From: Gammaproteobacteria bacterium
GTDB lineage: Bacteria > Pseudomonadota > Gammaproteobacteria > PS1 > Pseudothioglobaceae
Reading direction: 5' to 3'
DNA length: 64,000 bases
NCBI GenBank assembly: GCA_965206195.1
Contig: CBDBIZ010000006.1
Location: 68,563 to 132,562, forward strand
Below the pieces are notes generated by a model. That model had not been told where the DNA came from. It was given only the letters and a program-made list of their open reading frames with translations, and searched no databases. The translations under genes and the position numbers were made by a program. This document shows positions 18,531 through 43,137 of this stretch, one piece after another (the stretch's first letter is position 1; every line of letters starts with the position of its first letter).

Positions 18531-20251
18531 TTTATATGTGGTATATATATATATAAATATATATATATATTGGTATCTTATATATATGATATTGCACTGC
18601 CAATTTCAAAATGAAATATTATAGAAATCACTCAAGTTTCAACTTTGTTTGCCTTTTAGTTAGCTTAAGTCTAGCAATAGTATATCCTGCAGGTGTTGCC
18701 AATAGTAAGCCACACATATTGCAAATCTTATCGAAGATTATAGTGCTCACCGGGATGCTTTGATTCCATATGGCCAATTTTGGTTGGATTAATCAATAAA
18801 TGAGTGTGTGGGAGTGGCTATGACAAAAGAATATCCATTACCATGCCCACATGTGTTCAATTGTGCTCATCTATGTTCATGGAGAGTACTTGCCAATTTA
18901 CAGCAATTTATTCCCACTCTTTAGCCATGATGCCAACACACACACACACACACGAACCTATATAAATATTAAGTATTGGTCATCTATCTAGCTCCTTCAG
19001 TCCAGGCGATATTCATAATTATTCTTTTGGCACTTTTCATTTTGTATACCTATGGAGAGAGGTGTAGCAAGCAGGGATTCTGCCTGTGTCACTCCAAATG
19101 TCAAGTTGTTATTGTGTACCATATACTAAGCTTTTCTCATCCTAGGGTTTGTTTCATCAAATTACCATTACTTGCCTTTTTTTTTGGCCTGACATTAAAA
19201 AAGTAGAGGGTGTTGTCTAATAAATGTACTTTAAACATTCCACAGATTATATTAATTCCAAGTATGTATGTGTTTTCGGGTCTATCTCACATGGGTTTTT
19301 ATTTTGTTGCAGAAATAGCATTATCGCCACTTTGTATTACACAATGAAAGGAGTGGCATTTCGTGTCTAATAGTACTGAAGCAGTAAAGAATGAGGTTCA
19401 AAAGGAGCCCAATAACCACTTCTTTGGATATAATGAGATATTCAAAATATTGGAAATAGAAGACAGTTGCTAACAAGACTCTGAAGAATCTGTAGTTAGG
19501 TCACATCATTGTTCTTTGACTCCATCAAGCATCGTGTGCACGCCAATTTATTTAAATTATGAACATTTGCACTGGTTTGACATCTAATATAAACCTCAGC
19601 AAGTAGGTGGTAATTTTCTCATTTCAAATTTGTGTTAGCCTTAATATTGTTTATGCTTATCTCATAATAGAGTTTTGAAATACTATACTAAATATTTTTT
19701 GTTATATACCATTTTCCATGTGTTAACATGCACTGAGATTTAAAGAAGAACATGTTGCATTGGAATGAGTTTAGATTTGAGTACTTGGATTGGATGTGAA
19801 ACGATTATTATATTTTAAAATTTACAATAGTGATACGTTTGCTTATATATTATTTTCTGTGCACCTGTGAAGCAGAACAAATGTTTTGTTGCTTGTTCTC
19901 CCTTGTGTGTGTTTACTTTTCTGTACATTTGTCCACTCTAATTCATTTACAATTACCTAATTGAAGTAAACATTAATGTAGCTTGATTTTAATAAAATTA
20001 AGCTCTTTCTCTGTTTTAAAACATTTTGAGTGGTACACTAATTTTTTTCTACCAAACATACTGTCAAAACACTGGATTACTCTGAATATTTCCTATATAT
20101 ATCGGCAAAAGATGGGGGAGAAGAAATGTAATGATATATAAATATAAATTATAAAGATCTGTGATTTATATATTGTGAGATCCCTCTCCTACCCTTTGAC
20201 TTGCATTTTTTGATGTCTGTCTTATGTGTGCTTTGAAATTGCAGTGACGAC

Positions 20252-20686
20252 ATGCCTAAAGTTAAGAAAAGGTCAAAAATAAAGCATTCTCTTGAATGTG
20301 GCAAAACATTTGCTGTTGAGAGGATACTAGACAAACGTATCGGTAAAAGAGGGAAGGTGGAATACCTCCTGAAGTGGTTGAATTACTCGGAGTCGGAGAG
20401 TATTTGGGAGCCTAAAAGTCACCTTGTGCATTTCCCGCATATGAAGGGTGAGCCTTCCATGCTTGCCTCTAGACACGACCTGTCAGGGAAAGCCGGGAGT
20501 ACTGCTGTTGCCGAGAAAAGTGCTGTTTCTACTGGGAATATCGTGATTGCAATTGGAAACTGTCCAGTAACTGGGAATACTGGTGTTGCCGGGAATGCTG
20601 AAGTTGCTGGGAAGATTGCTGTCGCCGGCAAGAAGAATGCAAGAAGCGTGTTGGGCAAAGATAAGGACAAGGAGGCCAAAATGAAG
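20252..20686 (+). CDS. Chromodomain protein, exon 1
   Basis: It begins [58 protein letters not shown]. This matches the HP1/CBX chromodomain pattern (F/Y)xVExILDxR..G.VEYLLKW......WEP. A G/A/V-rich imperfect repeat follows ([17 protein letters not shown]). The donor is AAG|GTAGGT in phase 0. Confidence 0.8.
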
Positions 20687-21646
20687 GTAGGTCAGGCAGT
20701 ATTGATCACCATATCCCTTGTCTCTTACATTCTCACTTCACTGAGCACTATCCTTGTCTTAATACTGACAACTTTCGTTTTGATCTCTATCATTTTTTCT
20801 GGCTTGATCATCTCATAGTACCAGCATATGCCAACTCTTAGCTATTGATTCAAACTGGTAGAACTTAACCAAAACAATTACTCTATGTAATTGCATATAT
20901 TTATTAACTTTGCATGCCAGGTCCATCAATATAACAAAATAAATAATATCAGGTGTGCTCACTACTCATTGTGGCCTGATGGCTATAAATGTCTCTTCCA
21001 TGGCACATATCAGGGTTGAATTTGTGTAGTGCTGGACTTGTTGCCAGAAACGAGTTATTCAGTTGCAATGTTGGTAAAGTTGAGGTGATGAGTTTGATAA
21101 TATCTTACCCAATCAATATTGATAGAGGATGGACAAGAAAGGCAGTACATCCCTGATAAAGTAGGTAAAGGGTGGGTTATGATGTAGTCTCCTTTATAAT
21201 AGTGCACAATTTATGTCCAATGAGAATCAATGTGGTTTAAAAACACACCTTTGTACACCCTTAAACTTATTCATGAATGAAATAGTCCAACTTTGCAGCT
21301 ACTTACGAATAAAGAGTTCTTTTAACGACCATAACCTATTGTCGTAACCAAGGCAAACTCTCCTCCAACCTGAAATATTAGTCATAATAGATTAACACTA
21401 TCAATGGTAAATAATTAAGCACATATCATTAATTACCTCCCTTTTCTCCATATTTTTCAATCTGTTTAACATGTTTATCTACCATATTATCTCGAAAATA
21501 CTTCACATATGATCTAATCAAGGTATAGTGGGGCATCTCTTCTTTCCATCACTAATATTGTGCTAATAGTTAACATGTGCTCGGAATCATTTGATCTATC
21601 TTGAATAATCTGTTGAACCTATTTTATTCTCCCACACACATTTCAG

Positions 21647-22063
21647 CCTAGCATCATCAAGAAGGCCAGTGAAGAAAAGGATCAAGAGGTACCCTACTTG
21701 GATGACAGTGTTAAGTTCCAGGTAGCAAGCGAAGAAGTTGAGAAGAATAAAGAGAAAATTGGCTCCAGCAGCAGTGGCTCCAGTGATAGCGATACAAGCA
21801 GTAACAGTGAGACTGAGATGGAGAAGACACCTGTAAAAATGGGTAAAAAGATATTACCCAACACCTGGGATTCTGGTTCCCTCATTAAGCTGAAGAAGCA
21901 AATTGACTCATTACAAGATCTTGAACAGATGCGGGACATAGTATACATCATTGAAGAGGCCGCACTCTACACTATTACAGGACCTATGTTTAATTTTGAA
22001 CTTGGTAAGCTAGATGACACCACACTGACCAAGGTCATGAAAGTTATCGAACATACATGCTAG
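21647..22063 (+). CDS. Chromodomain protein, exon 2 (Ser/Asp/Glu-rich tract plus an ET/NET-like C-terminal region)
   Basis: It follows a TTTCAG acceptor and is in frame with exon 1. It reads PSIIKKASEEKDQEVPYLDDS...SSSSGSSDSDTSSNSETE...LEQMRDIVYIIEEAALYTITGPMFNFELGKLDDTTLTKVMKVIEHTC and ends at TAG. Confidence 0.7.
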   Translation, partial: PSIIKKASEEKDQEVPYLDDSVKFQVASEEVEKNKEKIGSSSSGSSDSDTSSNSETEMEKTPVKMGKKILPNTWDSGSLIKLKKQIDSLQDLEQMRDIVYIIEEAALYTITGPMFNFELGKLDDTTLTKVMKVIEHTC

Positions 22064-22432
22064 AAGATGCAACTTTCCAATGGACGAAGTGTGGAAAAGT
22101 AATTTTATGAAACATTATAGGTACCTATCCATGCCATATCTTATGGACATTCTATGAGCTTGAATTTTGTGTTCAATTGTGGAATCATCTTTTTTCCATA
22201 ATTCTTTGCTTGTGACTTGCCTCATCCCAATACACTGCTCTAGAATTGACACTTCATGCAATTTAATTTATGGAAAACAACAAATGTACATCTTAATGGT
22301 TGGCACATTTTATATATTTAATTGTAATTCTAGGTTTAATGTACTAGTCATAGGAGGAGAGATGGGGACGGGGAGTGACACCACAAAGATGACACCGCAA
22401 GTAACAAATACTCGATAACTGTATAGATAATA

Positions 22433-22463
<31 letters not shown>

Positions 22464-23459
22464 TTGGCATTCAGAAAATACTAGCATAATATTGGCACCT
22501 TTTGTCTTTGTGCTTTTTCATAACTTCCAAACCAAGATAAATTATTTGGAACCAGAGCTAAAATTTGGCAGTGTATTTCAACATTAAATGATAATGGATA
22601 AATATTAATTATGTTTGATGATAAATAAATATCTTTTTAAAAGATGAACATAGAGATTATGCCTTGGGTTCATCAGCCAGTTTGACTTACTTTCAACATC
22701 CACAGGCAAGTCAGGTGCAGAGAAGAAATGACTTAATGAGCCAATATACGAAAGGCCCATTCATCATCTTAATGGAGATATAAAGATTAATTTTATGCAA
22801 ATGGAGAATTTTTAATTATCAGAGTAATAGTACTTCCATGATCTTAAAAAATTAATCAAAATTTTTTAAGAATCTTTACTTTGATAAAATATTATATTGC
22901 TGGTATTGTTTGATATTTATTACACATGGTCATAGGAAGCATCTATCAAAATCATTTCCCATACTAGCATACACACAGGTAGACAGAAACAGGTGAATTA
23001 TTATAACAACTATTAATATAAAAAATCATATATTTTGTTGTAATCATTGAAATTTTCTTCCAAATTGCATCTATAATACAGCCAATTGTGTTAGCATCCT
23101 GCCTAAGCAGTACAAGTCAGTTCACCTGAAGGTGACTACATACATGAACTACAGATCATCCTTATAGCTTTTGAAATGAGGTATTGATTCTATTTAATTA
23201 AATAATGGATTCATCCAGCATATCATACAGAGTACACTCTTTTGGGGAGTGGGATTTGGATTTGAGTGATTTTTTAATTCACTTTTTTAATGGGACGAAG
23301 CACTTCAGGTAATTTATGTGTCTTATCTCTTGTCTTATATATATGTGATTATTTAAATTAGAAGGCCCTTGTCATTTGAGTAGGAAATTCCCATTTTACT
23401 TGAAGATTATCTTTGCTCTCGATCTTCTTGGAGGTGTGTAAACAATTATTATTAGGAAT

Positions 23460-23690
23460 AAAACTGTGTGTACATGTTGTTGCAATGAGTATGACATGCA
23501 TGGTCATGTTCTAACTATGAGTGAGTTGTGCGTGCAAAGGCACTTGCTATGATTGAGAGAAGTGTGGACATGATGTTGCTATGACTGACAGTTGTGTGGG
23601 CATGCTGTTGCTATTAGCTAGAAAATGTGGTCTTGCTGTTGCTATAAGTAATTGGTGTGCGAGTGTGCTGTTACTAGTAATTTTTAGAAC
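23460..23690 (+). repeat. Degenerate ~33-bp tandem repeat
   Basis: The unit gtgtggNcatgNtgttgctatgactga recurs about 6 times. Confidence 0.55.
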
Positions 23691-26600
23691 AACATTTTTA
23701 TTATTAAAATCTCAACTATTTTGAGGTTGGGGGGGGGGGGGAATGAAGAGAACAGACTTTCCGAATAAAAGGGTAAAAACTTTTTATTATCAGCATTGTA
23801 TATATATGCTTTTGTAAAGATAATTTATTTATCTTACACATAGAATAACATGCAGGGAGTAGATTAAATTTATATATATATATATATATATATCTATCTG
23901 CAGTGTACTTGAAGTGAAACTTTCTACTATAAAGGAATACTTCCCAACTCCTTTAATTGCAATAAAGAAGATAGTAATAGTTATTGAATTAAACATTCCT
24001 AATTTTTTATTACAATCATTAAATTGTACGCTTCCCTACAAACCACACTATGTTAAAACACTCAGGCACTCCTAAGTACCTGTGATTTAGTAATAAAACT
24101 CATGATCCTGTACAACAGCAGAAGTCAGAATGTACCGCTCAGCTTGTGGGATTCCATCCTTGGATGGTTTCTAGTTGCTACTGTTGTTTCATAGTGTTCC
24201 TGCCTCTAATGTTGCAGGTTATTCTTCCAGAGTGTGTGCACACTCAGTTACTGCCTGTTGCCTCTTTCTCTCTCCCTCCTCCTATGTCGCATCCTCCTCA
24301 CATTCATCTTATCCTTTCTGAGAATTACCCTTGGACTGTGGCTGGCCTTGGTGTTTTCTGACATGGTGTGGTCTAAATGAGGTGCATGTGGGCAGTATGG
24401 TGTTAAGCAGTTAGTGGTCATGTGTATGTGGGGAAGGAGGGGAGGTCTAACTTCAACCGTTCAAGTGTGAATCATGGATACACAGACAAAGAGACAGACT
24501 ATTCTCACTCTATAATGTAGATAGATATTTTCAGGCAACATACTAATTCTATCTCCTATGTCTTAATCTAAAATGAGAGAGAGCATTTGCAGCAATTACC
24601 GTGTCTGCACAGTAAGAGCATAATAAAATTAGTGGGTGCGATTTTCCATATGACTTGTTTACATTGTTGCACTACCTTATCCACAAATATATGAATATAT
24701 AGAAGCCAATATTGGGCCTTTACGGATTATGTTGGCATAATGTTGGGTAAAGATGGTGTTTCTGAGTTGCTAGAGTAATGCTGGAAAAATAGTCAGACTT
24801 TCCAAAAAATGATGACTTTCAGGAAAAAAAAGGTAGTGTTTTAGGAAGAATAGGTAGATCTTCAGAAAAAGAAATAAAAGAACTTTTAATCATAAATTTG
24901 AGTGAATGATTGTATCACAGTAAGAGATTATCCACACCTTTCATGTCCCACTTGTTAAATTGTGGAATACTTAGTCAGGGTCATATATAGAGTTAATATT
25001 AACTGTTTAAATGTTTCAAGTATTGAATGACTGGGCCCTTTGCTTGTTTTATGTTGTAACACTCACGTTTGTTTGTTATTGAGCATAATTTATAAAATTA
25101 GGTATGTAAAAAAGAAAAATGCATCAAATGGAAAGAAAAAGAGATGACAATAAAAGAAGAGAAAAGTAGGCAAAAATTCGAGCATAACCATTATATAATG
25201 AATGACAATCAAATCTCACCAACTTAAACATTGTTTTTAACTGAGGTACCTGAATACACTCTGCCTTATTATTGATCCTTGTTTAGTCGACATGTCCATA
25301 AAGGAAACACAACTTTTTAGTTACACTCATTGTATGTCGCGTAATTGTGGTCAGATGAAATCAAAGACAAAAGTCATTATTCTTTGATAATTTTTTTATT
25401 TTTTTTACATAATTACGCTTAATTTCACCATATGCAGTAACAGACATGTTAAGATTAGGAGTAAAGTAGTCAAGCCATAATCCCAAGCTCCACATTATTT
25501 TCCCCCAATTGCTTAACTACTTTAGAAAATGAACAACAATAGGGAAATAATTGAGGCATTGTAAATTTACGACTCATATCAACAAAATATACAAAATTAT
25601 ACTAAATGTCAAACACTGTGCAATATACTTAAAATAATGATAGATAGTTACAACATTACCATCTAATCTCGCCAATATTAAACCTTGTCCATATTGCACA
25701 ATAAAACTGTCTTCGCCTGTGTCTGGAACGGATTTCACACGTCCACAATACACCTTCATTCATCCCAACAGGTTCCACTTGATTTCACCTGAAAACTTCA
25801 GTGGGGTAGGCTTCAATCAGCTCAAATCTATTTTACATTACTGTGGCTTTATCGTGGATCTGAGCTATTAGGAATTTAGTCAATAATGGCTCACTCCCCA
25901 CTCTGTATCCGGCATTAGTGCTTTAACATTGCAGAAAGAGAAAAAAAAGAATAATTATATTCCAAATCTACAGTACTTAGTGGAAGTTGTATATCATTTT
26001 CTATGAACCTGTCATATATTCTTACTTGTAATGTTCAAACCACGAAACAGAACCTCTAGTAATAGTGAATACTTTGAGCTGTCATAGCAAATTGTTAGAC
26101 AAGTCTTCTCTTCAAAATGAAGAAAGTATTCCAGTGAAACGTATTTTTTTTATTTTAATTTTTTTTTCATTATTTTATTTATTTATTTTTTGTTTTTGTT
26201 TTTTTCAACTATTAGGTTTGTTTAAATAGCAATTTGGTTAACTAGACTAAATACTGTATCATTGCTACAAATTCTGTTTCCTATTGAAATATCTCCAGCA
26301 AAGGGTAAGTTGCATTTCTGAAGACTAAACCTTAATTTGAACCAAAGGTTGAATACTGCATGGATGTGAAGAGCTGCTTCAGTTGGGGATAAAATATTCA
26401 GACATATAAAGGAAATGTCTCTTCTTTCTCTTATTACTCCATTTAAACAATCCCTTCCTTTTGGATTTGGCCTCCTTTCAATGGAATTTCACTCCTTCTC
26501 AATCCTACTGCTAACAGTTTCATTTAAGGTCATAATTTTGATATGGCTAAATATCTTATTAAACGTTTTTAGCTATGAGCATACTCAGAGGGAAATTATT

Positions 26601-29215
26601 TCTAAGCTGTTAAGTAATTTTCAACCCGCCAATTTTGGTTACTTTCCCAATTTAGGCTACCACGTGTCCATTAAGAAACCGGTTCTCTTTTTTTCTCATC
26701 AAGTTGGAGTGAAGCCTTGAAAAGTTTTTAATTATTCAGTACCAACTTCACTTTGCGGCTTATTTATAATAAACTGTATAACTATTACAGAAATACACAG
26801 AAGGTGAATGACACCAGAGAAGGGTCAATAGAAGAGAAATGTACAAATGCTTTGAAGAATCCTCCTTGGACATTTCTGAAGAGTACAACGGTAAGTACTG
26901 AGATTAAGGTAACCTATATTACTGTAATTATCAAGATTCTTCAATTACTCCAGCGGGATAAATACTGATGTATGAGGTTTAAATTATTACTGCAGATTAG
27001 AAAACAAAAGAAAGTTACCGATATGAAAATAAAGTCCAGAAAATAATAACAGCTTCAAAAATATCTAACTTCAACAAAAAAATCTGGTCAGAATTCAGTC
27101 GTAATGATACAGAGCTTGTGGGACCCAGTTTTAAAAGGCAAAGTGTTACTTCTGTTTTTTTTAAATTTTTTTATTAATGTGTGCCAGTAACTTTTTTTCT
27201 TAGGTGATAGGTTACTTTATATTACTAAGTTTGGTAAAGTTAAGTGCAAAACTGATTTCCAACCCTCAAACAACAAGAAGGTTAATGCTCTAAAAGAAGG
27301 AGGGGTGTTGAATAAATAATAATAATTGCCTGTTGCTATGCCTACAATTCTGGAATATCATTATCACTTTGAAACATTAAAATAAAATATAGTACCACTT
27401 AAGTGTGAAATGATTATCAGTATAGAAGAAATCATTATCACCTTAAAGAAATTGTGATTTTCATAGGTGCAGGGTAAATATTGAATTGGCTAATTGCAAT
27501 CCCAGTTTAAAATTAATTTCCTTGAAGGAAACCAAAAAAAGATATCAACAAACAAACGCTGACATGTTTCCTCATAGTTGGAGATGCCTGTTGGGAGGTG
27601 GGGTGGGTGAAGGTGGAGGAACGCTAGTCTGGCTGGCCACACCTTTTAAAACATTATCCAGAGGGTGTGGCTTCTGTGGCATACCATATCTGTCCTACTG
27701 CAATACATTTGACAGTATCATAGTTGGTTGCTTTGCCAAATTTATGCATGCAACAATTTGATTGAGTTGCACACCCATCAAGCATATAATACAAATGCTA
27801 TTTTAAATTAAAAAAAAAAGAAAAAAGAAAGTATAAAAAAAGGTGGCACATGCAATACGAATGAAGTACTGTTATCCATGATTCACAGCCAAGTGAACCA
27901 AATTTGTATTTGGAAGACACCAGACCCTTCTGAACAAATTTTAGAAGATATGTTTCACTTGGCTGGGAAAAAAAAAGATCTTGCAGGTGTTCAATAAAAA
28001 TGTAATTCAGTTCAATCAATAAAGATGGATGGAGTAATACTCTCTATATTATTATTTGTGTTTAATCCCTTCATGTTCACTGGCCTGCATAAGTTTTAGA
28101 AAAACGTTTTGAAGCGACTGTTTAAAAAATAAACATTCAAATTTCATTCAGTTCCCTATGTCTTCCTGTCTCTGTATAAGATATTAGGGATCAATGAAAA
28201 GATTGAATTAAAAGTAGAAAAGCGAAAATAATTTTTGCGGGAACCAAGAAGAGGAAATATTGAATTAGGTAGAAGTGGACTATGATGAATTGATCCAACG
28301 TGGAATAAGGGATTAATTTTTGGGTAGTAGGTAAGAATTCAGCTCTAAATCTAAACTTGATCTAACAATTAGTTTAGCGGTAGTGCTTGGTAAAAACAGA
28401 CAAACAATGAACTACAGCTCTAGCTGGTTAGTAGTAGTAGCTGGCTATAATATCCAAAGATGAAGTCAGCTATAAAGGTGAACTTCAATAAAATATATAT
28501 TGTGATATTTTAATTATGTGTCATTTTGAGAATAATACAGCAACCCAAATATTTAACCACATTCAATAATGGTCTCGTAAGCGTAACCATATATCTTGAA
28601 ATTTAATGGTGGAGGTAAAGCATCATGCATGAGAGATGATTTCAATAATCAGTCTGAACCAAAGTTATAAATGGCAGCCCGGCAGTACTGACACTGTTTA
28701 CTTACTTCCTACAGAGTAAGAAATGAACCTGCTATTAAAAAGACAAAACACAAACATTTCGATAATTAGTTAAAAGGAAGTGTTATACCATCCTGTTCTG
28801 TCACCACATTAATTACAAGCAATTAAGAATGCATGTATTATCTCTCTCACTCGTTATTCCTGTGCGTGTGTCTGTTAGTGTGTGTGTGGTTGTGTTCGTC
28901 AGTGGTTCAGTTGGTGGATAGACAGGTGCATGCATATATGAGCGAACTCCTACAAGAGTAAAACTCTGAAGGCCACTAGATTTTTTATGGAGCACATTGG
29001 GATCCATGGGAGTGGAGGTGTCATTGCAATCTGTTTATCAAAATTGGGGTCATTGGCATGATGTGTGTTTTTTAGGTTTCAAATTTCCTGGGGGTGGTGA
29101 TGTATGTGTGAGGCGGAGGGGGAAGGAAATACATGAGTAATGAGCAAATACAAACAAATATATTTATGTGAACACACTCTACCTGAAGTCAGTAACAATG
29201 TGCCCAAAAACCATT

Positions 29216-29257
<42 letters not shown>

Positions 29258-29608
29258 GGCCAAACTGTATGTCCTTCCTGCAGACAGCAGTTTGACCCAA
29301 GCTCACAGAAGGTGGACCTGTCTATCAGTAGGAAGTCACATACCGAGTCTAGAGCTAGGTTCCTTTGGTATGCAAACCAGGCCAATATTTATTTTTTTCA
29401 TTACACAACATCAGGAAGAAAAAGAGAGAAATATAAACCAAATTTCTTATATTCAACTAGTGATATAGAATAATTAGCAAAGATTTGGTATAGAAATCAG
29501 AACTATCAATCAACACTCACATACTCACACATTATATGTCCCGATTTTCCATAAATTATGTTTGGGTTGTGATATGTGCAATTATATTTTATATTTTTCT
29601 TTGTAAAG

Positions 29609-29824
29609 GTACCCAGCAGTTGGCCACACAAAATGTTTCATCTCTTTTGGGGTTTGCTGAGGGACAGCAAACTTCTATTATGGACCAATGGCTATATCAG
29701 GACGCCCAGGGCATCACTCGGGGCCCTTTCAGCTCTATTGATATGATGGCATGGTATGGAGCAGGGTATTTCACTATGGATGTGAAGGTGCAAAGATACT
29801 GTGACCAGATTATGCTCCCACTAG
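29609..29824 (+). CDS. GYF-domain (GIGYF-like) gene, left-arm copy, GYF exon
   Basis: It contains ..SIMDQWLYQDAQGITRGPFSSIDMMAWYGAGYFTMDVKVQRYCDQIMLPLG. This matches the GIGYF GYF domain (WxYxDxxGxxxGPFxxxxMxxWxxxGYF...V.R....F.PLG). The donor is G|GTAAAT in phase 1. Confidence 0.8.
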
Positions 29825-30729
29825 GTAAATGGTGACTATTTAATGCAGTTGCTTGTGCTCTAGTGACAGTAGATATGATAGGATGATTAGTGGGAAGGGA
29901 TGGAAAAGTCAGCTACCTTTGGATAAAAAAATCGCTCAGGTGTATTTAATGCTTGTTGAGTATTCTTTCCCTAGCTTGAACAGTTTTGATTGATTTCGTT
30001 TCATTTTAGTAAGGAATGATAGTGCAAAGATATTATGAAACACGGCATGCTATCAAATCCTATGTGACCACAATGAAGAGCTACCACCTTAGATATTTTT
30101 AATTAAACATTAAAATTGTAGCTAATTAAAATTTGTTCAGTCTTTGTCTGTTCAATTTAATGGTCTATATTCTTTATGAGATAAATATTTGGGATTACAG
30201 AAGTAGGGGGAAGAGTTCTGCAATATTTGCTAGTAGTGACTTACACAAAACAGGTGGAAAATTTTGCATTAAACTTGTTAGCCAAACTACACCCAAGGGA
30301 GGATAATAACACTTTTCCTGTCAGTTGGAGACTGCATTTCAAATTTGAGCCAGTTGTTCTATCTGAGCAAGATATTTTCCTCTCCATGTGACTGGGAGAG
30401 TGTTGTTATCCTGCTCAAGGTCTGGCTAACTGTGTGCTTTGTGTGTTTAATTGAATGTGGCTCCACTCTATTGCTGTACTGGACCAATCTCTCTGTCTTA
30501 AAGGTCACATAGAGATAACATGCTAAATTTCAACCAAATCGGTTTTACAAAGTAAAAACTACTTGGTGTTAATATCAATGGTCAAACCACACCCATAACA
30601 ACACCCATTAGAGGGTAATAATAATTTTATGATCGCATGTAGATGATATGCCATATTTTCCAATAGGTGTGACCAGTTATTTGTTGGTATGATGAGCAAT
30701 TCATCATTTTGTCTTTCCTGTTTGCATAG

Positions 30730-30839
30730 GTGTTGTGGTGTACATCTGGGGGTGTCTCCCTTTCACCTCTGTCAGACCCTCACCTCCTCCCATCCAACCT
30801 TCCAACATCTTCTGGAAAGATGTTTTCCGCAATCCTCAG
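30730..30839 (+). CDS. GYF-domain gene, left-arm copy, exon B
   Basis: Its phase fits the exon before it. VVVYIWGCLPFTSVRPSPPPIQ.. parallels the remembered GIGYF2 segment IMKMWGRVPFSPGPAPPP directly after the GYF domain. The donor is CAG|GTGAGG. Confidence 0.7.
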
Positions 30840-31346
30840 GTGAGGAATCATTGATTCCAGTGATGAAATTGATACATGTTTCCAAAGTAAAGAACTTCAT
30901 GTTCGATGCAGAGTTGTAATAGCTACCCTTAGTTTATGGGCAGTTCACTTTCAGACACCATATTGTCTTCAGTTTCGCTAAAGGCAACGGCTCCCACCAA
31001 CTGCCCAAAAATACATAGTCTTTATAGTGCCACTATCCACTCACAATGTAAAATGAACAAACTAATCTGTTTCATGTACAGCCTCATTGTACCAATCTAA
31101 TAGCACCATAGGTGCATGTATATTACATCTCTATATGATATGTGGCCATGAATGTAATGTATGTTCATGGATTTCATCCATTCTCATAGTGTACAAGTTA
31201 ATATAAGGCCTGCTCATATAACACACATTCATTTAATACATGTCAATATAGTAATTTAATTTTGTACATGACTACATAATCTATGACACATTTATGTTGT
31301 CCTGTTTGTTCGTTATGAAACAACAAAAATGCTGCACTTTCAAAAG

Positions 31347-31506
31347 CAGATGCAATCTTCTGTTGCTGCTGTGGAAAGCATCGCTACGCTAGGAGACACA
31401 TACCAGATGAATTTTCCACGTGCTGGACAGATTCATCCATTAGAATTGTCATCATCGTGGGACCCAACAGGAATATGGAGCTTGCCCACGACAACCGAGG
31501 CAAAAG
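31347..31506 (+). CDS. GYF-domain gene, left-arm copy, exon C
   Basis: The frame is open (QMQSSVAAVESIATLGDTYQMNFPRAGQIHPLELSSSWDPTGIWSLPTTTEAK). It follows an AAAAG acceptor, and starting at 31350 is also possible. The donor is G|GTAGGT, and the phases fit both neighbours. Confidence 0.6.
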
Positions 31507-31593
31507 GTAGGTTTATTTTGTGCGGGCATTGGAGAGAGTAGAGCTACTGTTACTATTCATTCTTGTTGTTCATGCTGTTATTGCCATTTTCAG

Positions 31594-31810
31594 AGGAGCC
31601 GGTTTTCCAACAATGGCCGGTTATACCCACAGCTGATTCTGCATGGGTTCCTATTGCCACATCTTCTTCTGTGGACATGGACACCCAGAACATTCAAGCC
31701 CTTGTGGAGCAGGAGAGAGAGAAGGCAAACAGGCTTTCCATTGAGAGGGAAAGAAAGAAGCAGAGACAAGCTACAGAGAGGAAAATAGAAGTGGACAATG
31801 GTGTGGCTAA
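31594..31810 (+). CDS. GYF-domain gene, left-arm copy, exon D (charged E/R/K segment)
   Basis: It reads EEPVFQQWPVIPTADSAWVPIATSSSVDMDTQNIQALVEQEREKANRLSIERERKKQRQATERKIEVDNGVA. It has a TTTTCAG acceptor and an AA|GTAAGT donor. The phases fit both neighbours. Confidence 0.65.
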
Positions 31811-32528
31811 GTAAGTGAGGAAATTAAGAAAGGGGAGGCTTTCGTGTTGTTTATTTTAGCTATTTCACATCAAGCCAGATCTCTTGACCTCAGTGGCCAA
31901 CATGTACATACAATGTCTTAAAACTTCCACTGATCAAGCCAATTCTGAATGGCAAATTAGTCCGACTACATGGCAGGTCATACAACCCCTACTTTGCACC
32001 AACACTACGGCTTAACTTAGTATTGATCAAAATCAACTAATTCGGTGAAATATCTATTTGTGTATGTTTGTGCATGTGCATGTGTGTGACTTAAGCAGAC
32101 ATGCCATTTCTTCTTGCATGAATTGTAAATAGTACAATTCGTTCGACCGAGTTAATGAAAACAGTTTTTAGGTTGTTAAATTTGTAACATTTCCTCCTAA
32201 CTAGCATATTTCTAATTGTGATGAACTCCTATTAATATTCTAATTTACTATATTCACAATGCTTCAATTCATGTAACAAGTTGAAAAAAATTCTTGTTCC
32301 CAAAATATCTTTCATTTCCTTTTATTTTATAGCAAATATTTGATTATATTTATTACTGATTTACTTTAGTTAGTTCCTCGATAATCACCAATATGCATGA
32401 TTTTTGTGGGTTGACTTGAATATTTTGGCATGTTATGAAATTTTATATGAAGTCGTTTTGTGTGTTTTGGTTATAAATTCTCCAAATATAACTCAAGTTG
32501 TTCTCTGTCCCACTTCTCCCCCTTTTAG

Positions 32529-33291
32529 TGTCAAGCAACGTGTAAGCCACAGACACTCTAACGGTCACCATGACAGTGTAGATGCAGCAGCAATGCTATC
32601 AAGCCTCTCCTCAGAAACCTGTGTCGAGGGTGAGATTGTGAGCAAACCGTACTCTCTCAAGTTGGATGAGAAGTTGACAAATGGTGAGCTCTCAACTCCA
32701 TTTCCACAGAAAAACGGTTTCCTGTCATGTCGTTCTCCTGCTATGCCTACCAATGGCCAGGACAAAGGGAACCCCACACTGTCCATTTCTGCAAAGCAAT
32801 TTTATCCATTTTCAAAGAGCAGGAAGCAATTGATGTCCAATGTAAAGGAGACCATTCATTTAAAAAATATGGAGAATGAAGCAGTGAGCCGACCAACGGA
32901 ATACATAGAAAGTGAAGTCAATGCAAGGAGGCTGGATTTTGAGCGTAATGCCAAATATATGGCTTCCCTTCCAAGTGATGACACTGAACATGCTGCATCT
33001 CCAGCTAACAGAGCTGTGAAAAAGTGTGCTGAATATTTCAATGAGTGTGTGGAGAATTCCTTCGCTGCTTCATATGCACCAGATCCCAGGAATAGTCTGC
33101 CAAGCTTTCACCACACTGGTCTTATGCCTGTCTCTACCTCTCATCCTGCACACCAACAGGCTTCTGGTACTGAGCTTTGTTTGATGCAAAAGTGTGGCTC
33201 TGAGCATTCTCTGGCAGTGGGACAAACCCACACTAACGCCTACACACCGAGACAGATGGACACACACAATGATACTCACACACAAGGATGA
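32529..33291 (+). CDS. GYF-domain gene, left-arm copy, large exon E, with its 3' end and donor removed by a 174-bp deletion
   Basis: It follows a CCTTTTAG acceptor and is in frame with exon D. The frame is long and open (VKQRVSHRHSNGHHDS...SLAVGQ). Homology to the right-arm exon stops at 33224, after which the frame runs into former intron sequence to TGA at 33289-33291. Confidence 0.6.
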
Positions 33292-34439
33292 ATCCTGTTT
33301 CATTGAATCAATGAATAAGAATATGAAAGAAAAAGTGCGATTCATTTATTTTTATGGGGGAAATACGCCTCGTGCATGAACAAATACCATGTGACTACAA
33401 AGTGTTGTTTATTCCACATAGAAAACGATAATTGGTGGTTCATTTCAAGACTAGGGTTTTATAAGGCTAAAAATATTGTTGAGGACTGTAAGTAAACAAG
33501 AAGAGAGGATTGTTTTCCTTTAATTCATGTTTGAACTGCCTATTGAACAAATAATTCACTCCATTAATTCCATAAAAAATTTAAGTCACATCCATCAGCT
33601 CTGCTTGGCATATGGGATTGCTTGAGAGTGAGCCAGAAAAGGACATTAACCACCAGGTTTCGCTTTCTAACAACTTGGGTGGAGGGATTGTAATAGACGA
33701 TAAGCTGCATTCAGTTCCTGTTCACCGTAAAAAATATATATATATTTCTGTTGGATAGTGGGTGAGTAAACAATCTACGGGTGCTGAATTATTAAGTAGA
33801 CAATTTTGGCAATTTGCATGTAAGAGTCCACAATGAATGGCGCCAAGTATCAGTCATTTAAGAAAGCTAAGCTTTTGTGGATGTGGGGCGCGGTGGAAGT
33901 GGGGATTATATTGTTGTGTGTCTTGTGTTTATTTGCTTACTTTAAGAATTTCAATACTTTTTTCACACTCCTATTCCTTGAACCAGAGATCCAGTACAAA
34001 GGATTGGGGAAGCAGTGCTGACGGTAAATGGCCAAGCTCCTCCTTCACCAACATAGAGGAATTCCATCTGGAGATCCCTTCTTGTCTCTCAACACAGCCC
34101 TAGCCAAGGAAAGGTTCTCTGCATGAAGCCAAACAGAGAAAGAACTCAACTGAACAGTAGCAATATAGACCAAATCCAGTTATCACTATATTCGATTGCA
34201 TTTATTTGACTGCATTTACTTTTGTGAATGTCATTGTGATATCTGTGGTGGTATTTCTTGAAAAAAAATTTTTTTTCGTCAAAATTAGAAATATGAGAGA
34301 TAAATCAATTAAGAAAGTGTATGCCACTATGAGCATCATGATAATATAATGCCGTTTGGACATATGGACAAATTCACACACAGAAAATCAACAGCAGATC
34401 AAGTCACTCAGATTGCTGAAGACAACAAGGTGAGCTATT

Positions 34440-34870
34440 AGGCCAAAAAAAAACTGATGCTGTGTCTGTTGGTCTCACAGCAGCCTATGATACAACATGA
34501 CACCACAGCACACATGCATGCTTCTGTATCTGTTACCAGAGAGGCACATTGTCAAAATACATAGAATTTGTCACAAACCACAGCTTTATCCCCACCACCG
34601 GGAATATGACATGCAGCAGATCCTGACGCCTTAATATCGGTATTCCACATGGATCAGTCTTTGGCCCCCATCTATATAACATTTACACTTACAACATGTG
34701 AAAAACAGTCTTGCAGAAATAGGCATACATGGACGATCTTGCTTTGGAGTATTCTGGTAGGGACAAGAAGGCCGTTGAATTGGTTCTTAGCCAAGACCTA
34801 GTGACATTAGCAGCATACTTACACATTTGGTTGCTAGAGCTCTATTGGTCATAAATGGTGTTGGCTTTGC
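34440..34870 (+). mobile_element. Non-LTR retrotransposon reverse-transcriptase fragment (decayed)
   Basis: It translates, with stops, to VGLTAAYDTT*..NHSFIPTTGNMTCSRS*RLNIGIPHGSVFGPHLYNIYTYNM..AYMDDLALEYSG. This matches RT blocks DxxxAYDTV, NGxPQGSVLxPxLFNxY and YADDLAL. Confidence 0.7.
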
Positions 34871-35267
34871 CAAAGTTAGGCCTTTGTGGTCCAAGTATTA
34901 GGCTCTGATACTTAGACACATACATACATACAAACATGCATACATACTTACAAAGCAAAATTTATTTTAAAATGGGTTCGTGCATTTAACTCCTTACATT
35001 CAATCTTTATTCTGAAGTTCCCCTTTGATGGCACATCTTCACCTCACACACCAATGGAAAGTGACCAGGTAGGACCTTACCCATAATAACCTGTGAGTGA
35101 AGTCATACATGCATACATAGTTTCAGATCTGTACCTACAAAAGTTTTCCTGCTAGAGATACAACCATTTTCAGATTTTTCTATATATGTGAGTGTGTGCA
35201 TGTGTGAGTGAGTGAGTGCATGCATGCGTACATAAGCACAAATCACAAATCACGCACATACACATGA

Positions 35268-35585
35268 ACAATGCGCAGCTACAATTTTTAGGTAAGCATC
35301 AGTGTAACAGTACTTGCCAAACAATCTCAAGGATGTTATTTGCTGACTGGGTGCATCAAAATGCAAATGGTCAATATCACAACGCATGGTTACAGCATTT
35401 GAGAATCTGTTCGATCCAACTTTGTCTTCGATCAAATCCAGTGGATATAACTCGCTGCCACTCGGAAAGGTGTATTGTACTAGCAAAGAAGTGATATGGA
35501 AAAGTAACTCTGTTGGTAGGTTGCATAAATAGTTGAACCCCAGCTCCATCACCCCTCCAACAGGCTGGTAGATTGGGTCTGACAT
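35268..35585 (-). pseudogene. Left-arm remnant of the F-box/LRR ORF (first ~105 codons only)
   Basis: ORF 35250-35585 (minus strand) matches the right-arm ORF up to ..KIVAAHC. It then diverges at the 2,732-bp deletion junction. Confidence 0.75.
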
Positions 35586-36454
35586 ATTCTTCCCTTCTCC
35601 TTAATTAATTCAATTTTTTGGGCTGCATTTGTGTTTTTTCCAAAACTTATTCAGTAATTTGCTTTTGTTATTTTATAGATCCTTTCTCTTCTAAATTTTT
35701 TTTGGAGTGTTTCTACATTATTTAGTTAGGCATATATAATCTGATAAATTAAAAAAAAAAATTTTTCTTTATTATTTCTTTCAACTGTATCTTGTGTAGC
35801 ACAGATTGAACTACTTTCTTCTTTTTTTTTTAATTATATAGTGTATAATAATTATCTTTAGAAATTTTAAGTGGGTGATCTTTTAAATATTGAAATCACT
35901 CCTCTTCCATTCATTTCCCCACTTTATTTCAGTTTTCCATTCCATCATTATATTTGAATACTCCATTTCATTCTAATGATTCATTTCACAGGTTCTCTAG
36001 ACATGAACCAAGATTCTTTTCCACAGAGTATTTGGTAAAGGGTATAGGTAAAAGTGTTCGATAGGTGATATCCAGCTTACCTGCTCAGATTGGCATGATA
36101 CAGAAATTACATGCCAGGTTAATATGAGAAAAAAATTTTATTTTTTTTTAATCTTTTTGATTTACTTTTTCCCCCATTTATTTCTAGTTCTTCCTTATAC
36201 TTTGTACAACCAGGGAGGCTAATCATTTATTTGATCCTATTTTTATTGTTTGAATAGGGTTTATTTCCTGAGACATTCAAGCTAAGGGACACATCTTCAA
36301 GTAACACATTAAGAATTTCTTACAGTCTCTAAAGTAGTGAAAATTCCTTTTTCTTCTCATTATCCAGTTCCACCTCCCTCTTCTGGATAACTTCTCCAAC
36401 ATACCAAGAATCATCTGATCCCATGACAAAGTAGTATGCATTAAAAGCAGGTTC

Positions 36455-36481
36455 TAGGGCTAGGGCTAGGGCTAGGGCTAA
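36455..36481 (+). repeat. (CTAGGG)n, ~4.5 units
   Basis: Read directly. Confidence 0.9.
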
Positions 36482-37450
36482 TAAAAATATGAATATGACT
36501 TCAGGCTCACTATATATTGCTGCCATACTACTCATATGAAATATTTCTATTGTTTTAATCAATAACAAACTTGGCAAACCTTGATTAACAGCTGCATTTT
36601 TCTTTATTCATGTATATTATAGTTTCAGCAAACATTAGAGAATGTACATGGGAGAAGGAGAGGGTGGGTTGGTTGTGTTGTGTTGTGTTTTATTGGTTTT
36701 ACTCTTAACCACACATGATAAATATGCTGTTTGTGCTGAGTGCATGTATTTTTTCTATAACTTATTAGTTCCATCGGCCTCCTTTTTGGGTGGACCATCA
36801 CACCACCTCTTTTTACTACCCCAATACAAATGTGAATTATTATATAGGAGTTCTTTTCCTATTTTCTTGAATACACAGAGCCCAGTGAAGCTCACTGCTG
36901 TCACATGTATTGCTGTGACTGTCTTGTCCTGCAGGTCAAGCTCTACCATGTAAAGAGGAGTGACCTAGAAGAGCAGCAGCTCCATCTCAACGTGGGTCTG
37001 CAGAAGTTCAGGGAGACTGTTGAACGGGTGAACAAGCTGTAGTCCATTCACTCAATCAAGAAGAATGAGTTGGAGCAGAAGAATGCTCTAGACAACCAGA
37101 CACTCAGGCAGATGGTGAGCTACTGCCATTCTGAAAGATTAGCTACATATGAGTTCAAATAGAAAATATTTAGAAAATATTCTCAGTCTATTTATAATTG
37201 CTGATTTTTTAAAGAATTTATTTGTTTATTCATTTGTTTATTGTTGTAGTTTTTTATTGTTGTTTGGTTACTATCTTTGTAGGTCAAACATAAGCATGAG
37301 GCAGAAAAGAAGCAACTGACCTCCCAGGTCATCTAGGAGGACTGGAGGTGCAGAACAAGGACATCTCTGTGAAGAAGAAACATGTTTTGGTGGACCAGGC
37401 CAAGATCAAACCTACTGTCAGAGATGCAAAGCAAGGTGAGGGCAGTGCTG

Positions 37451-37630
37451 TAATTGTGGAACATGTCACGGGACTTTGCCTCATATGACGAGATTGTAGA
37501 TCATGTGATGAGATTGAGGGTCATGTGAAGAGATCGTGGGCCATGTGATGAGAATGTGGGTGGTGTGATGAGATTCTGGGTCATATGATGAGATTGTTGT
37601 TCATGTGATCAGTTTGTCATCAAAATAGTG
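37451..37630 (+). repeat. 20-bp minisatellite (attgtgggtcatgtgatgag)n, ~9 units, in the dynein pseudogene intron
   Basis: Read directly. It starts a few bases after the pe2 donor. Confidence 0.85.
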
Positions 37631-38670
37631 GTTACATTACTAGGCTGTGGGTAATGAGATGATGCTGTGAACCACATGATAAGTCTAAGTATCATGTGAA
37701 AACCTGGTGTGTCATTTTTGTCTGGCAACCCCAGCTCCCAAGTCCATCAAGAAGAAGCAGCTGGTTGAGGTGAATTCCCTAGCCATTCCTCCCATGATGG
37801 TGAGATGGCTATAGAGAGCATCTGTCTGCTGATCAGAGAACCAACCAAGGAATGTGAATCCATCTGCAGTATCCTCTGAATAAGAATTTTACCCTCACCA
37901 TAATCAAATTTTCCACTGAAAACGTCTCGTGAGGACATTGGATAGCTTCTGTATGAGTGTATCCGTTATGGGTACGATGTACCTTAATATATAGACATGA
38001 GGGGTGGATCTTCCCTTCTCCCCCCAAATCAAGATATAACAATTAACTGCACTCGCTCTCCTCTGGTGGAGTGACTGCACACCTTCATGTAGAATATATT
38101 CTATAGCATATCCTAATTACTGAGAAGTACAATCCACTAGCTGGAATAGGTCTAGAACTATGTTCCGACTCTTTCCTTACAGAATACTATCTAGAATGTG
38201 GGTTGTTGTTTTTTATTTATTAGTATTATTTATATAAATAAATTTTTTTTTAATTTAGTTATTATTAATATTATTATTATTTTAATAAGCAATTGAGGCA
38301 TCAATTTTATTAGGAATTTAATAACATTTTAGTGACCTTCATATTTTGGTGCTCACCTAATTTTTCAGTAAAAATTTTTCAATGCTTGAAAGGAGCCTTA
38401 TTCCACATTTGGTGCACCAATCTTCCCTTTGATTCTGGTTTTACATTAGTGCTTATAAGAAGTAGGAGGGATACCACTGGAAGGGGAAGGGGATTGGTTA
38501 TGGCGTGAATTGTATTGTAATCCCAATGAATTTACTCATGGTATGATCCATGCTTGTTTAATTTTGCTGTATAGTGATCCAGTTCTTGAGTTCATGAACA
38601 GGAAAAATTCTGTACGACCAAGTCTACAACTATGACAGTGTCAACAGTGCCAGCAAGGATTGTGGTCCTC

Positions 38671-38882
38671 TGGTGCTCTGGGCTATAGCTCAGGTAAGGA
38701 GTCATGGTGCTGTAGGCTATAGATGGGATAATGATTCATCTGGTGCTGTGGGCTATAGATCAGATAAGGGGTCCTTTGGTGTTGTGGGCTATAGCTCAGG
38801 TAAGGAGTCCTGGTACCGTGAGCTATAGCTCAGGTAAGGTTTCCTCTGATGCGGTGGGCCATAGTTTAGATCAGCGATCATC
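38671..38882 (+). repeat. ~36-bp minisatellite, 6 units, derived from the 3' end of dynein pseudo-exon 4 plus its splice donor
   Basis: Units take the form tggtgctNtgggctatagctcaggtaagg.... Unit 1 is the real exon end (..LVLWAIAQ|gtaagg). Three units keep caggtaagg. Confidence 0.85.
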
Positions 38883-41752
38883 ATCACAGTATCAAACTTG
38901 GTCTCATCCCCACATCTGCAGTGAAGTTGCAAGTGAAGATATCACCTATCATATTTTTTCAATAAGAATTTGTCAAAATGTTAATATGAGTGATACAATA
39001 ATGCGGGTGTGCTTTTTTGCATGCACATGGGTGCATGTGCTCTGATGAATTCAACTTCTTTCCCCAACTGATTAATTGGTGAAGATAAGAAATTTCCGAG
39101 CTAAATTATTGATATTGTTAATTGGTTAGAATTGTGCTATTAAATGTAATATTCTATAGTTCTGTTTCTGCTTCAGTTTGTGAGAAAGAAGTATAAAAGC
39201 TTAAAAAAAAAAAATGTTATATAATTCATCCACTGAGTGTTAAGCGCTTATTGTTGAATGGAAAATTGATAGAAAAATGAAGTATTTCATGAAATTACAC
39301 TCAAACTTCCTCCCATGCAGTTGAGCTGTGCAGACATGTTGAACCACGTGGACCCTCTCTGTAATGAACTGTAGGACCTGGAGACCAGGGCTGAGACCAC
39401 ACATATACAAGGAGAGGAGATTTACCAGATCATGTTGGATCTGGAGCAGAGCATCACGCAGTAAAAGGATGTGTATGCCATCCCCATCTCAAAGGCCAAC
39501 ACCATCAAGTCAGTCCTAGCTACCATGGAGTCCATGGTGGGCACTTCAACATAACTTAACTAATGCATGCACTGTGTAGGATATAATTTTTGCAGGGGTA
39601 TGTTAAGATTTGTGGTGTTATTAGTATGTGCTGTGATGAATTTTACTTCTTTCAGAACTGATGATTTGGTGAAGATTAGATATTATGAGAACTTTTATTT
39701 GAATGAAAAAAAACAATTTTTTATTAATATTTTAAAAATAAATTTATTTAGAATAAAACTGGCAAAATAATTTATTTTTTTAAATCTCTCTCTTCGAATC
39801 CAAGTTTTGGTGAGATTGCTGATTTCTCAACTCTGTTTTGTGTACAATCATGGTTTACATGCATATATATAATTAAATACCAAAAAACACAGGAGGAATC
39901 ATTACATTCTTACTCAGTATAGAAATTTGATCAACTAAGATGACACCTGTCTCCTACATCAGTGTTAGGATTAGGGAGACTTTAGATATTCCACCTGACT
40001 TCCTTCCCTTTCCTCTGGCTCTCTTGCGGTTCACTTTGCCGTAATCCTAGCTGAATGAGTTCTTTGATTTTTTAAATCTACCAAGGCATTTTTTACCTCA
40101 AATTAATTAGTGTCAGGTGGTCGATTTTGTGTAAATGTTAATAATCATTATGTTTTAATATCATATATTTTGACCTAACGATATTCGGTTTGAGGACATT
40201 TTGGACACTTGTGTCATCCAATACTTGTCCTACTCATTGTGTTAGAGTGGTGTGTGTGCGTACATGTATTATATACATATGTATTCATGCTTTGATGAGT
40301 TTTACTTTTTTCTCCAACTTATTTCTTGATGAAGATTATAAATATCTAAGCAGAATTATTGACTTTTTTCTTCCACTGTATATCTTCTAATAATGTATAA
40401 TAAAGATGCTATTCTCTGCCATCCCTGTCAAGTAGATCAGAGCAATGCTCTCCTGGCCAGCTTGGGAGATGAGAAGAAGAGGTGGAACAAAGGAAGCAAC
40501 ACCTTCAAGATCAAAATGTCAACTATCTGTGGTGACTTGCTTCTCATGTCTGTTTTCATGGCCTACAGAGGAATCTTGGACCAGAACTTCTGGTACACAC
40601 TGTTTCTGTCATGGGCAGATCATATGCAGCAGGCCAAGATTAAGTTCAGGTATGATCTGGCTTGGGTTGAGATAAATAGATATTGAAGTGTTACATTAGT
40701 ATGCTTTTCCACGGCTGTTATACAATTTTGGTGGAGTCTTAATTATTACGAACTGATAAAATGTTATCGTAAGTAAGTAAAATAGCAATAAATTTTGGCA
40801 TACTTCTGTCAAAATGCATATAACTGTTTCATCAAATTTTTTCTAAAGTTTAAAATATTGTAGGAAAATGTATTAAACATTTATTCTAAGACACTTTCAT
40901 GGTGTGAAATGATGCATGGGATGAAGAGAGAAGTATGATCAGATGGATTTTATTTCAATGCTACTAAAACTTGCTTTGCCTTCAATTTCTAGAAGTGTTT
41001 AAATTAAATTTACAGTTATTTTTTTTTTGAACATTAAACACAGTTGTCATAAATAATCAATTAAACACAAATAATAATTAGTCAAACATATTAATGGCAT
41101 ATCAAGCAAATAATAACTCATCAAACACGCAAGATGTGAGTAATCAATGATTTTCTGTGATTCTTCTTCTCTCAAATTAACTGAACTTTCCTCACTCGAT
41201 TCTACTTGCTATATCTGTCCAATGCTGATGAGTGTCTCAGATGGTAGGTCAACTATCTGCCCTACAACGACCTGTGCATGGAGAATGCCATTATGATTTA
41301 GTGATTCAACCGCTAACCCTCATCATAGACCCCGTCAGTCCACAGATTTCCTGCTCAACGAGTATGGAGGCCCCAAAATTGCCAAGAAGAGGTGGGCTTG
41401 GCTACACTGCAAATGACAGAAATTTAAAGAATTTATTTTTTCCACTTTCTTTCGTCTAGCTTCTTAGATGATGCTTTCAGGAAGAACCACAAGAGTGCAT
41501 TGCGTTTTGGTAAACCTCTTCCTGTTCAGGTAAGGCTTTGTGCGAAATATTTATTTATCAACATATTGTTTGTACCAAGGTTTCAATATAATGTTATGCA
41601 TTTTAAACAATATTAAGGATGTTGCAAGTCATGAACCCATCGTGAACCCTGTTCTGAACAGTGAGGTGAGGCATACTAGGGGCGGCATGTCCTCATCTCT
41701 CTTATTGACCATGACATAGATAAATCGCCTTGTTTCACCATCTTTCTCTCCT

Positions 41753-42207
41753 CAAGCTGTACCATGAGAAGAGGAGTGACCTGGAGGAGCAGCAGTTCCA
41801 TCTCAACATGGGTCTGCAGAATATCAGGGAGACTGAGCAACAGGTGGTCAAGCTGCAGTCTTCTCTCTCCATCAAGAAGAACGAGTTGAAACAGAGGAAC
41901 ACTCAAGCCAATCAGAAACTCATGCAGCTGTTGAGCTACTGCCATTCTGAAAGATCTGCTACATTGAGGTTAAATAGAAAAAATTAAGAAAATATTCTCA
42001 GTCCATTTTTAATTGTTGATTTCCAAAAAAAATTTATTTGTTTATTTATTTTGATATTGTTGTATTTTTTTTTGTTGTTTGGTTGCTATTTTTGTAGATG
42101 TAAGATCAGCAAGAGGTGAAGAAGAAGCAACTGATATCTCTGGTCATCCAGGAAGAACTGGATGTGCAGAACAAGGACATCTCTGTGAAGAAGAAATGCC
42201 CAGCAAG
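41753..42207 (+). pseudogene. Second, older partial copy (B) of dynein pseudo-exons 1-2
   Basis: It reads [59 protein letters not shown], then the same intron (gtgagctactgccattctgaaag..). A pe2-like exon ends at CAAG|GTGAGGGCAGTG. It is clearly more diverged from copy A than the two palindrome arms are from each other. Confidence 0.75.
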
Positions 42208-42221
42208 GTGAGGGCAGTGAT

Positions 42222-42360
42222 GACATTGTGGGTCATGTGATGAGATTGTGGTTCATGTGATGAAATTATGGTTCATGTGATGAGATGTGGATCATGTAAT
42301 CAGATAATGGATCATGTGATCAGATTGCAGGTCATGTGTTAAATTGTGTATCATGTGAGA
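42222..42360 (+). repeat. The same 20-bp minisatellite in dynein copy B, ~7 units
   Basis: Read directly. It lies directly after the pe2-like donor. Confidence 0.8.
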
Positions 42361-42751
42361 TTAAAATAATTTCACTATTCATCAGTTACTACATAGTTAA
42401 CTGTGTATTCAGATGAGCTTTCTGGAGGAAGTTTTGTTTAAAAAAAAAAGTACACAGAAGTTCAAAGGACACTTAATTCTGAGAGCTGCATTCATCATAG
42501 TTACTTAGAAATAGGGTAATAACTTACCCACCCACCTCTCTTTTGTATGCCAGTAAAGAATTATAACCCAGATGACTACAAAAGGACAAATGACAGCAGG
42601 TTTATTCATAATATTAACTTTAGAAATGCCCCACAAGTCCCCCCAAACATTAAGCAAACTGAATAAGTTAGTAACTCCAGGAAGCCCATGGTCAACCGAC
42701 AAAATTTTTTTAGAATGGGTGGGTGAGGTTTATTGCAAGTATGATAAGTTC

Positions 42752-43128: not shown

Positions 43129-43137
43129 CTCATGCAG

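Follow-up and report, generated by a model that had tools for sequence, protein, structure and literature searches.

A substitution-free tract in a large palindrome points to recent gene conversion between its arms

We analysed a 64,000-nucleotide stretch of DNA, called the window below, which corresponds to bases 68563-132562 of C6, a 182-kb contig in a prokaryotic genome record of 2.17 Mb and 11 contigs. The window contains the left arm and part of the right arm of a large palindrome. A 4616-bp segment of the left arm (27810-32425, forward strand) carries no substitution relative to its partner in the right arm (55914-60528, reverse strand; 100% matches), and we estimate at about 80% the probability that this tract was recently made identical by gene conversion between the arms. 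A first-pass annotation of the window had already suggested a recent event of this kind, and the proposal is borne out by the variation that other copies of the sequence show in the tract, by a permutation test, by the distribution of alleles private to the palindrome and by the clade that the two arms form in the tract.

A substitution-free tract in the arms of a palindrome

The inverted repeat was mapped by k-mer diagonals, by BLAST of C6 against itself and by aligning the arms base by base with MAFFT. The left arm covers 7038-39299 (+) according to self-BLAST and MAFFT, and the right arm (-) occupies 46136-64000 of the window. The palindrome extends well beyond the window; the right arm runs on along the contig to window-equivalent 81206, and the arms are 32.2 kb long. 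Between them lies a 6.8-kb spacer (39300-46135) devoid of mirror symmetry, since no inverted k-mer diagonal crosses it and the arm alignment ends at 39294/46141. Part of this spacer (40511-44964) is a 96% direct copy of a sequence further upstream on C6. The arms differ by 203 substitutions over 32,256 bp, which corresponds to a substitution identity of 99.37%. These substitutions include 124 transitions and 79 transversions, and several of the 1-bp indels between the arms are common to other copies of the family described below; both the transition bias and these common indels argue that the differences are real variants rather than consensus noise.

The differences are distributed very unevenly along the arms. 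Their density is about 7-14 substitutions per kb in the outer half, zero in the tract and about 7 per kb in 32426-36601, and only two are found in the whole of 36602-39185. The longest arm interval without substitution measures 4617 bp, a gap that none of 20,000 uniform placements of the substitutions reached (p<5e-5; analytic value ~5e-11). All 203 substitutions lie in the other 27.6 kb of the arms. The rate observed there predicts 33.9 substitutions in the tract, and the probability of seeing none is 2e-15; the divergence of the tract is less than 9% of the outside rate. An even spread of differences had been named in the first-pass annotation as the observation that would speak against a conversion tract, and the base-level alignment shows them to be clustered.

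The same annotation had described a difference-free block of about 2.9 kb, lying between a 1-bp indel near 29567 and a T/A difference near 32424. In the MAFFT alignment, 2861 bp separate the indel at 29564-29566 from the T/A substitution at 32426, so that the pattern stands while both limits move by 1-3 bp. The constant coordinate sum of 88339 reported for 29568-32423 was found again on the k-mer diagonals, and the sums are 88338 and 88339 over the tract as a whole. The size of the identical segment had been underestimated, as the tract already begins at 27810 and extends over 4616 bp rather than 2.9 kb, with one indel inside. This sole difference consists of GGG in the left arm (29564-29566, +) against GG in the right arm (58774/58775). 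All 12 other copies examined read GGA at this place (site 29566), and the simplest history is that an A>G change was copied into both arms, after which one G was lost in the right arm, or is missing there through a base-calling error. We therefore handle 27810-32425 as one tract.

Two features inside the tract deserve mention. The homopolymer A33 at 29220-29252 (+) and its partner T33 at 59086-59118 are of equal length, as had been noticed at first reading. The 12 other copies have poly-A runs of 27-54 nt (54 in c21864), and the length is unequal between the arms in all four other palindromes of the family. An exon-like open frame at 29497-29835 (+), with its mirror copy at about 58504-58841 (-), encodes a GYF domain (Pfam PF02213, E=3.6e-14). 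The presence of this exon and of other exon-like frames could suggest that the tract, with the 5' part of the GYF gene in it, is preserved by purifying selection or by a locally reduced mutation rate. Coding sequence makes up a minor part of the tract, and 98 sites that are polymorphic in the family lie inside the concordant run reported in the next section. C6 carries near its start a further copy of the segment, called Q, and there are 32 differences between Q and the identical arms in 27810-30827 (1.06%). The copies L007-L011 differ from the arms at 22-42 sites across the tract, and fourteen other copies diverge from the window arms by 0.5-1% within it. Hence, the identity of the arms is not due to constraint or to low mutation. 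We rejected purifying selection and a mutational cold spot, the tract being normally variable in Q and L007-L011, and give this explanation next to no chance. Stepwise growth of the palindrome as the origin of a young tract was also rejected, as older sequence is found on both sides of it.

Alleles present in both arms require copying

The tests for conversion rely on other copies of the arm segment. They were found by using the 295-aa frame at 32404-33288 as query in a protein search, which returned clusters of near-identical products on long contigs of the ENA assembly ERZ25069296. The 20-kb loci around 12 further copies were then retrieved by exact matching of three small open reading frame products. 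In total, 16 distinct copies of the arm segment were seen, and they belong to at least five related palindromes. Besides the palindrome of the window, four were recovered with both arms each: c24110 (L019/L020), c22908 (L013/L014), c21897 (L015/L021) and c22803 (L017/L018).

The first-pass annotation had recommended a GENECONV-type analysis. We performed such a permutation test, conditioned on the 268 sites that are polymorphic among eight copies in 23500-34383. The two arms of the window are discordant at 41 of these sites and show a concordant run of 98, which was matched in 0 of 10,000 permutations (p<=1e-4). The permutation and placement tests both identify a discrete identical tract beyond chance. 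When the 91 pairs formed by 14 copies were compared, the four longest concordant runs came from four pairs of arms, each pair belonging to the same palindrome.

A more direct indication comes from window-specific alleles, defined as those seen in the palindrome of the window and absent from the 12 other copies. Within the tract, nine such alleles are present in both arms and none in a single arm; outside it, one is present in both arms and 32 in a single arm (Fisher p=2.2e-8). Since a mutation starts in one arm, an allele found in both requires copying. The nine both-arm alleles are located at 29397, 30085, 30115, 30255, 30571, 30574, 30694, 30702 and 30959, forming a cluster at 29397-30959 (+), and Q, which covers eight of these sites, holds the alternative allele at all eight. 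Phylogenetic trees agree with this picture. For 27810-32425, the two arms of the window group together with support 100/99, on a branch of 0.003 and with tips of zero length, and the arm pairs of c22908, c21897 and c24110 are also clades with support of at least 97. The tree of 32426-34383 is star-like, with tips of 0.0051 and 0.0035 for the two arms of the window; no supported clade of left and right arms is found for this interval, and the approximately unbiased test does not reject such a clade (p=0.088).

Copying into both arms could also have taken place from outside, if the same third copy, from another palindrome or from a tandem unit, had separately overwritten each of them by ectopic conversion. 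Exchange between copies does occur, as indicated below by runs of sites shared with the adjoining repeat unit, and the nine window-specific alleles are bunched in 1.6 kb. Against this, the haplotype of the tract was found in no sampled copy, the nearest, c21864, being 22 sites away, and two independent events would need to have given matching outcomes over 4.6 kb. We give this scenario hardly any weight.

Conversion between the two arms would consist of a non-reciprocal intrachromosomal transfer, in which the inverted arm serves as template for the repair of a break in its counterpart. The molecular route could have been synthesis-dependent annealing or a related form of break repair, and one single event may have generated the whole tract. 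The flanks would have been homogenised for the last time far earlier, or never; arm-specific mutations persist in them, along with old variants that other members of the family also have. The left-arm deletions at 33221 and 35265 may have hindered conversion in the neighbouring block.

Assembly, haplotypes and other points to be weighed

An identical block could also be produced by assembly or polishing if the arms truly differ and pooled reads gave both of them the same majority sequence in 27810-32425. At least 16 copies with 96-99.9% identity coexist in one sample, and the ENA contig names bear depth labels of 115x-588x, highest on the shortest contigs, a sign that part of the family may be collapsed. 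However, the same assembly separates the arms at 0.7-0.9% on either side of the tract and resolves copies that are 0.05-0.5% apart, and the transition-biased differences and 1-bp indels common to other copies indicate accuracy at the base level. The naming style of the contigs leads us to infer, without proof, that a long-read metagenome assembler was used; if the reads were long and accurate, the 4.6 kb of the tract would be shorter than a typical read, and the dense markers from 32426 onward would tie the reads to their own arm. Moreover, pooling alone would not yield the ratios of 9:0 in the tract and 1:32 outside, and the four other palindromes behave alike with different boundaries. We consider such an artefact unlikely.

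Another possibility is that the arms are identical on each chromosome and that the assembler took the two arms from different parental haplotypes in some segments and from one and the same haplotype in the tract. At every site where the arms differ, c21864, the nearest of the other copies, agrees with one or the other, in alternating runs, and a divergence of 0.5-1% is within the range of heterozygosity of many invertebrates. Two haplotypes are nevertheless insufficient, because the left arm, the right arm and c21864 are mutually distinct in 23900-27809 (pairwise differences 11/14/5 and 6/6/6), and the arm-specific differences of 176 and 2733 bp sit on one contig. A haplotype switch, which we find very improbable, would in any case still imply that the arms were homogenised within each haplotype, i.e., arm-to-arm conversion.

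Several points weigh against recent conversion between the arms as we propose it. A single assembly underlies the identity of the arms, and all copies come from one ENA sample. Given depth labels of 115-588x, some members of the family may be collapsed multi-copy consensus sequences. The clustering of the nine both-arm alleles in 1.6 kb could reflect import from an unsampled copy, yet both arms had to receive it. The base composition of the alleles is also ambiguous. Over the five palindromes, both-arm alleles comprise 24 AT-to-GC against 38 GC-to-AT changes, and single-arm alleles 18 against 62; the resulting enrichment of AT-to-GC changes among both-arm alleles (odds ratio 2.2, p=0.042) is marginal and gives a weak hint of GC-biased conversion. 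Transversions of the A<->T and G<->C types make up 42 of 122 single-arm alleles (34%) and 9 of 71 both-arm alleles (13%), an excess in single arms that GC-biased conversion does not account for.

A diverged block with two left-arm deletions

Immediately inward of the tract, the arms diverge by about 0.7% over 32426-36601 (+), whose partner is 48836-55913 and which encloses both left-arm deletions. We listed 36 substitutions in this block, of which about six are alignment slop at the junction of the 2.7-kb segment. At least nine differences had been announced after 32424; there are exactly nine substitutions in 32426-33131, the first being the T/A at 32426 (partner 55913), followed by a 176-bp segment present in the right arm only (33221/54942-55117). 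The block, to which a divergence of about 1% had been attributed, is not simply plain background, as both alleles are found in other copies for seven of these nine differences (seven of eight within 32426-32862), which identifies them as old family variants. In the wider interval 24340-35270, this is the case for 15 of the 35 arm differences. The right-arm alleles at 32652, 32793, 32834, 32862 and 33248 are those of L006, the copy that has diverged most, and this match suggests that old states were retained. Old family variants in 32426-36601 imply either that no homogenisation has occurred there since the family diversified or that exchange with other copies has taken place.

The arm alignment shows two segments specific to the right arm. 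The first, of 176 bp (54942-55117, -), faces a left-arm deletion at 33221-33224; it is present in most other copies and also absent from c22141. The second, of 2733 bp (50168-52900, -), faces a left-arm deletion at 35265, and L007, L008 and L010 carry a segment of about this size at the same place. As most other family copies carry these segments, the differences are deletions in the left arm. The copy L012 (c22141, 588x) carries the same 176-bp deletion as the left arm, and its large exon of the GYF gene has a C-terminus altered by the deletion in the same way (product P0012 ends like the left-arm product P0007). L012 and the left arm differ at 57 of 348 family-polymorphic sites, so that the deletion allele exists in more than one copy.

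Between the diverged block and the spacer lies a second tract of low divergence at 36602-39185 (+; partner 46252-48835), with two substitutions (37972 and 38560) in 2584 bp. Over the five palindromes, sequence lying no more than 1 kb from an arm-specific indel of 10 bp or longer shows 1.12% substitutions, and the remaining sequence 0.40%. This correlation, which is no more than that, fits the idea that heterology hinders conversion.

Related palindromes and exchange beyond the arms

The divergence between arms ranges from 0.05% to 0.99% among the palindromes, and their longest substitution-free tracts measure 1.0-6.6 kb; each palindrome has its own mosaic, with different tract boundaries. In the contigs c22908 and c24110, 17 kb spanning the same arm/spacer junction are collinear, which indicates that their palindrome is older than their split. 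Comparing these two, all 65 quartet-informative sites pair the arms by palindrome and none by side, and the palindrome of the window, set against the same two, gives counts of 55:2 and 87:4. These counts, together with the arm clades supported at 97 or more, demonstrate concerted evolution of the arms. In window-equivalent coordinates, the inner boundaries of the palindromes lie at 34383 in c24110 and c22908, at about 30828 in c22803 and at 39293 in the window. The homology of Q also ends at 30828. The differing inner boundaries imply that the centres of the palindromes were repeatedly rearranged.

The palindrome of the window is itself nested in a direct repeat of about 84.3 kb (C6:68402-182056, from window position -160 onward), in which the order of the segments is A-B-C, spacer, C'-B', then a second A-B-C. 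The copy called T (C6:162144-182056) belongs to the second repeat unit, which is cut off by the contig end, and matches window 7032-26882. The copy Q (C6:1-4538) stands at the contig start and matches window 26301-30827 with 98.7% identity. A 461-bp segment (26883-27343) is present in both arms of the window and absent from T and from both arms of c22803; the homology of T seems to end at 26882 because T is without this segment. In the comparison of left arm, right arm and T, the right arm equals T at 17 consecutive sites in 20894-23623, where the left arm is the odd one, and the left arm equals T at nine consecutive sites in 18092-18890, where the right arm is the odd one. These runs suggest exchange between the palindrome and the adjoining repeat unit.

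Eukaryote-like DNA in a prokaryotic genome record

The contigs of the genome record fall into two groups. In C8, C10 and C11, stop-free frames of at least 150 aa occupy 74-84% of the bases; C11 measures 1.58 Mb and the other two about 72 kb each. In C1-C7 and C9, which include the C6 of the window, such frames occupy just 0-13% of the bases. This eukaryote-like share amounts to about 450 kb of the 2.17 Mb, and the record is rated 100% complete and 0% contaminated despite these contigs. C6 bears intron-type gene fragments, among them the GYF-domain exon. None of 60 related prokaryotic genomes that we searched contains a match to the tract, which fits foreign DNA in the bin, and an exact 45-mer search of a collection of genome contigs, excluding the record of the window itself, returned no match. 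Judged by coding density, gene fragments and the 60-genome search, C6 is probably eukaryotic DNA, likely that of the host, binned together with a small-genome prokaryote. The first and last ~58 bases of C11 are mutually reverse complementary, and near its ends there are tandem repeats whose period is about 351 bp. Users of the record should know of its eukaryote-like DNA.

Comparison with known palindromes

In fold-back (hairpin) assembly chimeras of long-read data, the spacer is minute or absent, and read errors are the sole source of difference between the arms. The palindrome of the window resembles such a chimera in being an inverted duplication on one contig. We rejected this origin given the 6.8-kb spacer, the segments of 176 and 2733 bp, the 124:79 ratio of transitions to transversions and the occurrence of the variants on other contigs.

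Most documented cases of arm-to-arm conversion in large palindromes are from mammalian sex chromosomes, with a few from plants and birds. The process being already known, the tract is an ordinary though clean example of it. It would nonetheless provide a well-resolved case of conversion in an unrelated eukaryote, and the five related palindromes allow conversion tracts to be compared and give a hint that structural differences between arms limit conversion. A broader reading, which we hold only tentatively and with more doubt than confidence, is that these sequences constitute an ampliconic palindrome family of a non-mammalian eukaryote (at least five palindromes, at least 16 segment copies and high depth labels), in which conversion is patchy and curbed at structural differences. 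Should its chromosome be sex-limited, germline-restricted or a B chromosome, the family would represent an independent origin of palindrome self-repair of the mammalian Y type.

The large palindromes found on mammalian sex chromosomes have been defined, and the conversion between their arms described (10.1101/800185, PMC8600007, PMC8327919, PMC8981503). The palindromes P1-P8 of the human Y and those of the primate and mouse X have inverted arms longer than 10 kb that are more than 99% identical and flank an unduplicated spacer. The palindrome of the window conforms to this description, with at least 99% identity over inverted arms well above ~10 kb (99.37% over 32.2 kb) and an unmirrored spacer of 6.8 kb. 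As in the mammalian palindromes, arms group by palindrome and not by side, identical tracts adjoin diverged ones, and multi-copy gene families are found in the arms; a GC bias, if real, would be a further parallel. Differences concern the context, as here the palindrome is carried by eukaryote-like contigs within a prokaryotic bin. Unlike the mammalian palindromes, it is also part of a direct repeat of about 84 kb and of a family whose palindromes, at least five in number, differ in their inner boundaries, and many of its genes look broken according to the first-pass annotation.

Large palindromes whose arms are kept alike by gene conversion have also been described on the willow W chromosome (PMC7023750). 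They are closest to the present case in being large, non-mammalian and maintained in arm similarity by conversion, and they differ from it in that they belong to a plant sex chromosome of known location and gene content.

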